Program-made: the position numbers and the translations under genes | NCBI RefSeq assembly: GCF_000026545.1 | Contig: NC_011601.1 | Reading direction: 5' to 3' (one strand) | DNA from: Escherichia coli O127:H6 str. E2348/69 | Lineage (GTDB): Bacteria > Pseudomonadota > Gammaproteobacteria > Enterobacterales > Enterobacteriaceae | Length of the DNA stretch: 64,000 bases | Notes under the pieces: model-generated | The model's input: the letters and a program-made list of their open reading frames with translations, nothing else | The model's database searches: none | Told to the model about the DNA's origin: nothing | Shown: one piece after another, positions 43,233 through 45,174 of the stretch | Position numbering within the stretch: position 1 is the first letter of the stretch | Layout: each line of letters opens with the position of its first letter

Positions 43233-43568
43233 GCCATTATGTCTCCTGCCGTAATCCGATGCTTTTGTCGGTCGCTTTTGTTCATTTTTTTGGTAAAGAA
43301 AATGTTATACATTTGTTGCGTATCATTATGCAACCTTAACCATGAATTTAGTTAGCAGGAAAATGGTTATTAAGGAGCTTAAGGATAGATTTCTGGTAAG
43401 GAGGAAGTATGGAAGTGGGCAATTTGGGGAAGACGTATTCGCTGGCGTATGTGGAGGAATAAGCTGCCTCTACCGTGCTTGCGTAGGCCGATGTGATGGA
43501 CACCTCCCGCCTTACGGCATCAATGTGCCAGACTGAGGCGTACCCAGTTCCCAGGTGGAGGTGTCCGT

Positions 43569-44686
43569 CATGAATATTAAGCGTATTGGTCTCGATCTTG
43601 CAAAAACGTTTTTCAGATCCACGGCGTTGATCACCATGAAAAAGTGGTACTGCGAAAAAGGCTGCGCCGTCCCCACATGATGACGTTTTTCTCCGGGCTT
43701 TCTCCCTGCCTCATCGGCATCGAAGCCTGTGGCTCTTCTCATTACTGGGCCCGCGAGCTCACCCGTATGGGCCATACCGTGCGCATTATTCCACCGAAAC
43801 TTGTCAAACCTTATCTCAAAGGTAACAAAAACGACGCCAATGATACAGCCGCCATCTGTGGGGCCATCAGCAGGCCCGGCATGCGATTTGTTGCCCTCAA
43901 ATCGGAAGCCCAGCAGACGCTGCAGGCAGAGCACCGGGTCCGGGTCCGGGTCCGGGTCCGGGTCCGGGTCCGGGTCCGGGTCCGGGTCCGGGTCCGGGTC
44001 CGGGTCCGGGTCCGGGTCCGGGTCCGGGTCCGGGTCCGGGCAAGAATCATCCGCGAGCGAACGGCACTGTGCAATGAAATCCGGGGGCTGTTAAGTGAGT
44101 TTGGTCTGGTGCTGCCCGTGGGGATAAGGCATGTGCGTAAAATCCTGCCGGAAATCCTGTCACAACAGGAGCAGTGGAATGACCGCTTCATCCGTTTGTT
44201 GTGCGAACTGTCAGAGGAAATGCAGATGCTAGATGAACGCATATCGCGTTATGACCGCCGTCCTCATGAGGCTGCAAGGGATGATATCCGTATTAAACGG
44301 CTGATGGAAATAGAGAGTTTTGGCCCGATAGTAGCGAGCGCTTTGTAGCCGCCGTAGGGGATGCGAAGCAATTTAAAAACGGGTGGGAAATGTCAGCCTT
44401 TATTGGGCTGGTTCCGCGACAGCATTCCAGCGGCGGAAAAGAGCGGTTGGGTCATATAAGCAAACGGGGCGACAGTTACCAGAGAACGCTGATAATCCAC
44501 GGTCCCCCCGCAGTACTGAGATTCAGCGCCGGAAAAACAGACAGGCGCAGTCGCTGGCTACAGTCGGTGGCAGAAAGACGCAATAACAATATTGCCGTGG
44601 TGGCGCTGGCAAATAAAAACATCAGGATAGCGTAGGCGATATTAAATCGTGGTGAAGAGTACTGTGGGGTGCCGAATGCGGCGTAA
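43569..44686 (+). pseudogene. IS110-family (DEDD) transposase/recombinase pseudogene: -1 frameshift at A5 run 43601-43605, in-frame 102 bp hexamer expansion, 1 bp deletion near 44345, in-frame TAG at 44633
   Basis: Joined frames read MNIKRIGLDLAK|NVFQIHGVDHHEKVVLRKRLRRPHMMTFFSGLSPCLIGIEACGSSHYWARELTRMGHTVRIIPPKLVKPYLKGNKNDANDTAA...QAEH(RV)17RARIIRERTAL...ESFGPIVASAL|VAAVGDAKQFKNGWEMSAFIGLVPRQHSSGGKERLGHISKRGDSYQRTLIIHG...ANKNIRIA*AILNRGEEY; N- and C-terminal motifs are characteristic of IS110-family recombinases (ORF track 43644..44348 and 44390..44635). Confidence 0.8.
43934..44040. repeat. Perfect hexanucleotide tandem repeat (CCGGGT)x17.8, 107 bp, in frame within the IS110-family tnp pseudogene
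   Basis: Directly visible; encodes (RV)17 in the tnp frame, (GS)n and (PG)n in the other plus frames, (TR)n on the minus strand (see ORF track 43644, 43729, 43811). Confidence 0.98.
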
Positions 44687-44965
44687 ACAGCACTGACCAC
44701 CTTGTAAGTAAACGAGTAATAAACCTGCCGTAAGCGTACAAAGTTATAAAAAACTGATGTGTAACAGGTAAGACCGACATCTGATAAATCCGACCTTATC
44801 CATGGCTCCCTGTAAAGCAAAGCCGGCAGGCCGAAAGGAAACAGATGCGCAGATAACATCATGGCCGGGAACGACGGTACCGTAAGAGAGGCCGGATATA
44901 CGAATGCAACTTACTCCCGTTACACAGATGAAAAATAACTTGCGCAACGGGAGTTGTCCATATAT

Positions 44966-44996
44966 GGATAAGACGTGCCAGCGTCGCATCCGGCAT
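44966..44996. repeat. REP element next to the rrnG terminator
   Basis: Reverse complement gccggatgcgacgctggcacgtcttatcc matches the REP consensus. Confidence 0.7.
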
Positions 44997-45013
44997 TTAT
45001 TCCGCACCAACGC

Positions 45014-45039
45014 AAAAAAGCCCAGTCTTCCGACTGGGC
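45014..45039 (-). terminator. rrnG operon terminator (gcccagtc-ttcc-gactgggc, U-run on minus strand)
   Basis: Hairpin with A6 on the plus strand, immediately downstream of the 5S rRNA on the minus strand. Confidence 0.85.
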
Positions 45040-45054
45040 CTTTCGCTAAATTTG

Positions 45055-45174
45055 ATGCCTGGCAGTTCCCTACTCTCGCATGGGGAGACCCCACACTACC
45101 ATCGGCGCTACGGCGTTTCACTTCTGAGTTCGGCATGGGGTCAGGTGGGACCACCGCGCTAAGGCCGCCAGGCA
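45055..45174 (-). rRNA. rrfG: 5S ribosomal RNA (120 nt)
   Basis: Reverse complement reads TGCCTGGCGGCCTTAGCGCGGTGGTCCCACCTGACCCCATGCCGAACTCAGAAGTGAAACGCCGTAGCGCCGATGGTAGTGTGGGGTCTCCCCATGCGAGAGTAGGGAACTGCCAGGCAT; operon named rrnG by synteny (kgtP/clpB flanks). Confidence 0.97.

Follow-up and report, generated by a model that had tools for sequence, protein, structure and literature searches.

The spacer between kgtP and rrnG of Escherichia coli O127:H6 E2348/69 very probably holds a dead ISCro5-like insertion sequence (IS110 family, IS1111 subgroup) that entered the CG of a REP sequence, has RNA-guided live relatives and carries a slipping tandem array in its broken transposase gene. The stretch of DNA analysed, referred to here as the window, is 64,000 nucleotides long and is matched at 100% by the E2348/69 record NZ_LT827011.1. 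Measured from the start codon of kgtP (43232) as far as the 5S end (45057), the interval is 1,824 bp in E2348/69, compared with 322 bp in K-12 and 323-356 bp in four further strains. A preliminary description of this DNA had given 1822 bp (43233-45054), had put K-12 at about 0.3 kb, leaving some 1.5 kb extra, and had interpreted the surplus as a degraded IS110-family element between kgtP and the 5S of rrnG. The measured sizes uphold this account, and the interpretation agrees with RefSeq, in which the pseudogene at this locus is annotated as "IS110 family transposase, frameshifted" (NZ_LT827011.1) and part of it, in a later E2348/69 assembly, as "IS110 family RNA-guided transposase". Seven of 5,426 complete E. 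coli genomes carry the element, all at the kgtP-rrfG locus, and none of the 5,426 has an intact copy; a relic 86-88% identical, adjoining ugpB and with a different 3' half, is present in about 212 of them.

Ends of the element and its REP target

Genomes in which the site is empty fix the ends of the element to within the 2-nt ambiguity of a CG, the unique body being that given in the table. In these genomes the native sequence extends as far as GCGTAGGCCG (43481-90) and is found again from GGATAAGACGTGCC (44966 on); one of them (L008) has the unbroken site GCGTAAGCTGGATAAGACGCGCCAGCGTCGCATCCGGCA, which is rebuilt when the element and one CG are taken out. As read from the two flanks, the REP is split at GTAGGC-CG-GATAAG by an insertion in the + orientation, its right half beginning at 44967, and the target is flanked on one side by the rrnG terminator and on the other by the region upstream of yfiS/kgtP. 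As the sequence comparison shows, the element entered the CG of GTAGGC-CG-GATAAGACG in a forebear of a narrow E. coli lineage to which the EPEC strain E2348/69 belongs. The left half of the split REP is missing from K-12 and from the strains whose flanks are most similar, strain CFSAN018748 has an uninterrupted REP (...TGCGTAAGCTGGATAAGACGCGCCAGCGTCGCATCCGGCA) with TG at this unoccupied site, and in strain EC21Z-151 the same REP of the kgtP-rrfG spacer is occupied by IS1397. The window was scanned for other intact AGGCCGGATAAG targets and has none.

Coordinates of the element, its parts and its neighbours in the window
Feature	Position	Strand	Remarks
pssA, yfiM, kgtP (in that order)	kgtP start codon 43232	minus	
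yfiS-like small ORF	43409-43462		native spacer, not element
Left half of split REP, GCGTAGGC, with left junction dinucleotide CG (43489-90)	43481-43490	+	empty-site genomes
IS1111-type element body	43491-44964	+	1,474 bp; ends shared with relatives, limits set by empty-site genomes
Left subterminal inverted repeat, GGACACCTCCC	43498-43508	+	preceded by 7-nt extension ATGTGAT (43491-97)
Transposase pseudogene	43570-44686	+	DEDD/RuvC-like N domain; Transposase_20 C domain with GLVPRQHSSGG
A5 run, -1 frameshift at codon 12/13	43602-43606	+	A6 in intact L011 and L073
Perfect (CCGGGT)17.8 array	43934-44040	+	107 bp, in frame, encodes (RV)n; TRF, 100% matches
Lost G, second -1 frameshift (TTGGTA to TTGTA)	44345-44346	+	restoring G gives ...ASALVAAVGDAKQFKNG..., invariant in relatives
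In-frame TAG for invariant Trp324	44633-44635	+	alignment A3; polarised as window-branch change
Predicted bridge/seek RNA	44761-44923	+	in 3' noncoding region 44687-44964; consensus folds
Predicted outer stem	44761-72 / 44910-23	+	consensus fold
Predicted target loop stem	44777-83 / 44842-48	+	consensus fold, covariation
Putative T-match, CCTTATCCA	44794-802	+	fits insertion site
Predicted target-loop hairpin	44804-24	+	consensus fold
Putative B-match, CAGGCCGA	44827-34	+	fits insertion site
Putative donor loop segments	ACATCA 44856-61; ATATACGA 44896-903	+	
Predicted donor loop hairpin	44867-81	+	consensus fold
Right subterminal inverted repeat, GGGAGTTGTCC	44949-44959	+	followed by 5-nt extension ATATA (44960-64)
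Right junction TG (44965-66), then right REP part, GATAAGACGTGCCAGCGTCGCATCCGGCA	44965-44995	+	empty-site genomes
rrfG (5S)	45057-45172	minus	Rfam; followed by 23S, tRNA, 16S

These limits differ from those first proposed. The preliminary description had placed the element at 43340-44840, but the segment 43340-43490 is present in the empty-site genomes and is therefore native spacer outside the element, and the right limit was 125 bp short. It had also held that the boundaries could not be fixed, IS110-family elements being without terminal inverted repeats; here they are set by the 11-bp subterminal repeats together with the empty sites. The REP it had noticed on the right (44966-44996) is indeed there, but it is one part of a REP split by the element, with the left half at 43481-90, and the 9-bp-stem hairpin (44917-44959) thought to mark the target region is internal: its arms, ACTCCCGTT (44913-21) and AACGGGAGT (44946-54), lie within the element and are kept in close relatives.

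The subterminal repeats pair at 10 of 11 positions in this copy (one mismatch) and at all 11 in relatives. Noncoding DNA amounts to 79 nt upstream of the gene and 278 nt downstream of it (44687-44964). The element thus combines subterminal repeats, a long 3' noncoding region and site-specific insertion with no target duplication beyond the junction bases, which are the features that define the IS1111 subgroup (PMC11187229). When 96 bp of repeat growth and two 1-bp losses are undone its length is about 1,380 bp, and intact relatives measure 1,362-1,385 bp. The relatives came from a species-representative scan, which supplied distant ones (38-57% identity) and one partial Klebsiella match, and from exact-protein look-ups, which supplied the closer ones. 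The ends ATGTGAT-GGACACCTCCC ... GGGAGKTGTCC-ATATA recur in relatives from E. coli, Klebsiella, Salmonella bongori and metagenomes. More than 10 independent loci are occupied at the same REP position in an AGGC-CG-GATAAG context; the copies lying between ...AGGC-CG and CG-GATAAG... include five identical S. bongori copies, Klebsiella copies (with GGGTAAG on the right), the two nearest intact copies L010 and L011, and L073, the last an E. coli draft-genome copy adjoining yghU. Since these loci are unrelated, the clade inserts at the CG of the REP core GGCCGGATAAG.

A predicted two-loop RNA and the loss of mobility

The 3' noncoding region is predicted to encode a two-loop bridge/seek RNA, by analogy with ISEc11, ISPa11 and ISKpn4 and from comparison of the region itself, which can be aligned in relatives down to 38-57% protein identity. 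The consensus fold of 25 sequences consists of a stem, internal loop and hairpin, followed by a second such unit. Of the cells at the specified pairs 91% are paired, compared with 28-46% when the partners are slid, and the covariation score, 0.63, lies well above that of the slid controls, which reach 0.16 at most. Compensatory changes occur in 8 of 8 pairs of the target-loop stem; the outer stem and most donor-loop pairs are invariable, which makes covariation uninformative for them, and the inner hairpin pairs of the target loop were left uncounted because the MAFFT alignment is out of register between clades there. Comparative analysis alone was informative, the single-sequence fold of the noncoding region being no better than shuffles (z = -0.9). 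Rfam 15, at gathering thresholds and at E values up to 10, gave chance matches alone in the noncoding region and the repeat, which reflects the content of the library and not the element. A simple promoter and terminator scan found nothing above shuffle expectation.

The loops themselves correspond to the target and to the element ends. The 5' side of the first loop is the reverse complement of the right flank and its 3' side equals the left flank, and both vary with the target: on the left TAGCCCG versus CAGGCCG, on the right TTTACCCG with CGGGTAAG and TTTATCCG with CGGATAAG, and in distant relatives the strings are other ones altogether. Against its own flanks an element scores on average 5.8 and 5.7 matches of 7, compared with 4.3 and 4.2 against the flanks of other elements; 0 of 10,000 permutations did as well, a figure inflated by relatedness. 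In the second loop ACATC[A/G] matches the left end ATGT, with CCAT where the end is ATGG, and ATATACG corresponds to ATATA of the right end together with the junction bases. In this copy two stem pairs, A.C and A.A, are broken, and the alignment of close relatives shows no other breaks.

The junctions are unequal. The left one is CG and the right one is TG here and CG in close relatives; across the family the right junction is CG, TG, CA or TA, and in distant relatives the two differ as YA on the left versus YG on the right. The crossover point, as judged from the junction sequences, is constrained only to the shared CG. The TG may have arisen by mutation after the insertion, or it may be left over from donor and target cores that were not equal, and the putative guide of this copy carries an A that would pair with the T of TG.

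For the live members we infer, from the family and with support from the sequences compared here, the following course of transposition. The element would leave as a circle, whose junction in an intact relative would read CCATATA-CG-ATGTGATGG. The joined ends are probably a promoter, with a -35-like TTGCRY contributed by the right end and, 17 nt further on, a -10-like TA-YR-AT that spans the joint; the conservation of these two motifs at this distance suggests a junction promoter like that of ISEc11. Transcription would then cover the transposase gene and the 3' noncoding region, whose RNA would take the two-loop form. Its target loop may pair with both strands of the REP, CCUUAUCCA with the top-strand TGGATAAGG and CAGGCCGA with the bottom strand of AGGCCG, while the donor loop would pair with the element ends. 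The DEDD/Ser recombinase would finally swap strands at the shared dinucleotide without duplicating the target, and an intact relative would thus insert at the CG of the REP target GTAGGCCGGATAAGACG.

The copy in E2348/69 cannot move. Its gene is disrupted by two -1 frameshifts, by a stop in place of Trp, by the 96-bp expansion and by six or more substitutions at invariant sites; two stem pairs of its predicted RNA are broken and its right inverted repeat has a mismatch; and the 5,426 complete E. coli genomes contain no intact helper copy. Could a related transposase acting in trans nevertheless mobilise its ends or RNA, or make use of the RNA? The seekRNA of IS1111 members does act in trans and with diverged transposases (PMC11187229), the target-matching segments of the RNA are intact and fit the site, and a 95%-identical copy in an E. 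coli draft genome is open up to the contig end. We nevertheless consider this improbable, given the broken stem pairs, a right inverted repeat and right junction base that are off consensus, and the restriction of the element to a single locus in all seven carriers.

Less credible still is that the element belongs to the IS110 subgroup and, like IS621, has its bridge RNA upstream of the gene, as a start at 43340 would imply. IS621 is the best-known REP-targeting E. coli element of the IS110 family, and 230 nt separate 43340 from the ATG. IS621 reportedly encodes its RNA upstream of the gene, has no subterminal repeats and uses the core CT. The empty-site alignment refutes such a reading here: only the last 79 of these nucleotides are element, the subterminal repeats, the long noncoding region and the covarying RNA are all on the 3' side, and the IS621 transposase is distant (E = 1e-5, C-terminal half). 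Equally hard to credit is that the 1.5-kb segment was ancestrally present and that almost all other E. coli have lost it by deletion, an idea to which the polymorphism of the spacer, with K-12-type spacers without the left REP half, lends some colour. It was rejected on the rarity of carriers, on the uninterrupted REP rebuilt by removing the segment, as in L008 and L009, and on the ends of the segment, which are typical of the family and found at many unrelated loci.

The decayed transposase gene and its hexamer array

To read the pseudogene as a protein, one A was added to the A5 run, the G at 44345/6 was restored, TAG was changed to TGG and the tandem array was collapsed. The repaired protein has 340 aa and shares 95% and 94% aa identity with two intact 340-aa proteins (P0001 and P0002). 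The joined frames match NCBIfam NF033542, 'IS110 family RNA-guided transposase', with 324 bits (cutoff 140), and the repaired protein matches both Pfam families that the preliminary description had named for checking, DEDD_Tnp_IS110 (PF01548, E = 2.8e-13) and Transposase_20 (PF02371, E = 2.3e-19). Its recognition of an IS110-type DEDD recombinase was thus correct, and the peptides it quoted are present; an intact non-IS gene does not occupy the interval in all E. coli genomes, the other observation that was to have overturned it. D9, E52, D89 and D92 are invariant in the alignment with intact relatives (A3). So is GLVPRQHSSGG, which fits the GL-P----S(T)G motif defined for the C domain of the IS110 family (PMC11187229).

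No intact reading frame is left, the gene having two frameshifts, one stop codon and the 96-bp expansion. Three of these lesions had already been seen and all are real: the -1 slip in the A5 run (given as 43601-43605, one position too low), the 1-bp loss near 44345, which is the G missing from TTG^TA, and the TAG at 44633, which replaces an invariant Trp. At these positions the intact copies read A6, TTGGTA and Trp. Both frameshifts and the TAG are common to all seven carriers, and their recurrence across seven independent assemblies excludes sequencing error. The notion of an intact gene spoiled by sequencing or assembly errors, which could appeal to a lesion in a homopolymer run, a classic error site, has accordingly next to no likelihood and was rejected, the assemblies stemming from different laboratories and hosts and the copy having in addition at least six invariant-residue substitutions and a 36-108 bp in-frame array. 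These substitutions, at residues invariant in seven aligned intact relatives, are E98G, G218S, R241W, L273Q, A281P and R282P; L200P is also present in the repaired protein, at a site conserved in relatives and outside the invariant list.

Polarised substitutions on the window branch number 37 synonymous versus 15 nonsynonymous, so the greater part of the 9-10% by which this copy differs from the nearest intact relatives accumulated while selection still acted on the gene, ahead of its inactivation. The insertion had been called old. This holds in that the lesions precede the common ancestor of the seven carriers, but it does not in that just 7 of 5,426 genomes carry it.

The largest lesion of the gene, the hexamer array, had gone unmentioned. 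Relatives have CCGGGTCCGGG at its site, equal to 1.8 units, so sixteen units (96 bp) have been added in frame here. The seven carriers have 6, 7, 8, 9, 17, 17 and 18 full units (the terminal partial CCGGG left out), and apart from the array their copies are told apart by only 5 SNPs. Folded as single-stranded DNA, the array forms one long hairpin (-37.9 kcal/mol, z = -3.5), which fits slippage; its length changes through replication slippage, probably aided by hairpins of the CCGG palindromes. Two E2348/69 assemblies have 17 versus 18 units, a difference that could be an assembly error. A literature search on E2348 with IS110, on kgtP with VNTR and on ISCro5 returned nothing relevant to the element or to the VNTR.

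A bolder, two-part reading is that (CCGGGT)n is an active hypermutable VNTR and that the unequal junctions are the fossil of a heteroduplex resolved between differing donor and target cores. We regard the pair of claims as speculative and rather unlikely. If the array is hypermutable it could allow tracking of EPEC O127:H6 and its relatives at the level of laboratory stocks, and this hexanucleotide VNTR is a possible marker for E2348/69, a widely used EPEC reference strain. If the junctions are such a fossil, natural IS1111-type recombination would tolerate a Y/R wobble at the core.

Known relatives and significance

The nearest named transposase is that of ISCro5 from Citrobacter rodentium (ISfinder: IS110 family, IS1111 group), with 75% aa identity over 333 residues in the ISfinder-derived set of PMC11187229; the copy described here differs in being a pseudogene. 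At 75% identity the two would count as different IS species by the usual ISfinder criterion, and the element may already bear a name. The ISCro5-type protein clade, represented by Klebsiella P0014 and S. bongori P0016 (336 aa, like ISCro5), has the same ends, noncoding RNA and REP target, GGC-CG-GATAAG.

ISPa11, ISEc11 and ISKpn4 are members of the IS1111 family for which seekRNA has been shown experimentally (Siddiquee et al. 2024, PMC11187229). They resemble the present element in their subterminal inverted repeats, 7-nt left extension, long noncoding region downstream of tnp and lack of target duplication, and in having the top-strand match 5' of the bottom-strand match, with an overlap where insertion takes place. 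Their RNA was demonstrated by experiment, whereas the RNA proposed here is deduced from covariation. ISPa11 also targets REP sequences and its transposase is 56% identical, but its host and REP sequence differ.

The only solved structures that match the transposase are those of the distant IS621 and ISCro4. IS621 (IS110 subgroup; bridge RNA, Durrant et al. 2024 and Hiraizumi et al. 2024; PDB 8wt6) is likewise a REP-targeting E. coli element with a DEDD and Ser recombinase and a two-loop guide RNA for target and donor. Its protein is distant, matching in the C-terminal half only. IS1397, a REP/BIME-specific member of the IS3 family, targets the same REP, but with an unrelated DDE transposase, by another mechanism and at another position within the REP.

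As an IS pseudogene the element is ordinary and already annotated; its kind is not new, and the mechanism of its family was published in 2024. A lineage-specific, annotated relic of this sort has little importance for biology at large. Its by-products are the exact ends and the REP target of the enterobacterial ISCro5-like clade, together with a comparative model of the predicted bridge/seek RNA in which guide and target covary over about 20 different targets.

The kgtP-rrfG spacer and its occupants

At least two forms of the kgtP-rrfG spacer were found when window positions 43233-43490 were compared with five loci from other genomes (L005, L006, L008, L009 and L072). The left REP half is present in CFSAN018748, AH04 and the E2348/69 lineage and absent from K-12 and ESC53083, and the spacers of the latter two therefore lack the IS target. 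The native part of the spacer carries a small yfiS-like ORF (see table), and at the equivalent position in K-12 yfiS itself is annotated (b4783, 20 aa). The preliminary description had counted this stretch as part of the element, within a range of 43340-44840; it is instead native spacer, ending 28 nt short of the IS body.

The REP of this spacer is occupied in strain EC21Z-151 by IS1397, a REP-specific element of the IS3 family. Two unrelated REP-targeting elements have thus entered one REP in different strains.

Features of the spacer, the left end of the element and related loci
Feature	Sequence	Coordinates	Strand	Product or motif
yfiS-like small ORF	window	43409-43462	+	peptide MEVGNLGKTYSLAYVEE*
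Left subterminal repeat	window	43498-43507		GGACACCTCC
Shine-Dalgarno segment	window	43557-43566		GGAGGTGTCC
IS1397 locus, EC21Z-151	L007, NZ_CP101197.1	857-909		
ugpB-side relic	L002, NZ_CP013025.1	2501-3589		
E. coli copy in draft genome	L073, GCA_013520565.1, JACDVK010000038.1	2420-3231		

Junctions and left end

Among distant relatives of the element (L012-L036), the left junction dinucleotide is CA or TA and the right one CG or TG, so that the two have only their first base in common. Position 43490 of the window is G in E2348/69, A25 and DCE7, and A in two Korean isolates (L062, L064), in both of which the left dinucleotide is CA. Just inside this junction, the left subterminal repeat is complementary to a segment containing the transposase Shine-Dalgarno sequence, 4 nt upstream of the ATG, and this complementarity is kept in all close relatives. 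In read-in transcripts the two could form a hairpin sequestering the ribosome binding site.

Related copies elsewhere

About 212 complete E. coli genomes harbour a second relic of this IS clade, with ugpB on one side and a phytase-like gene on the other. Its identity to window 43483-44308 is 86-88%, and its left junction (GTAGGCCG/ATGTGAT) is that of the window element; past this segment, a blastn comparison at word size 7 showed no nucleotide similarity between its 3' half and that element. In RefSeq the pseudogene is entered as a single IS110-family gene, and the relic may be a chimera or recombinant.

A copy in an E. coli draft genome (L073), located in a REP downstream of yghU, is 95% identical to the window element and has A6, that is, it is free of the first frameshift; the contig ends within it. 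Some E. coli may therefore carry copies that are apparently live. In Salmonella bongori CP074592.1, five copies (L050-L054), each encoding an identical 336-aa transposase, occupy five different REP-like sites (N-AGGC-CG-GATAAG), and there the element is probably active.
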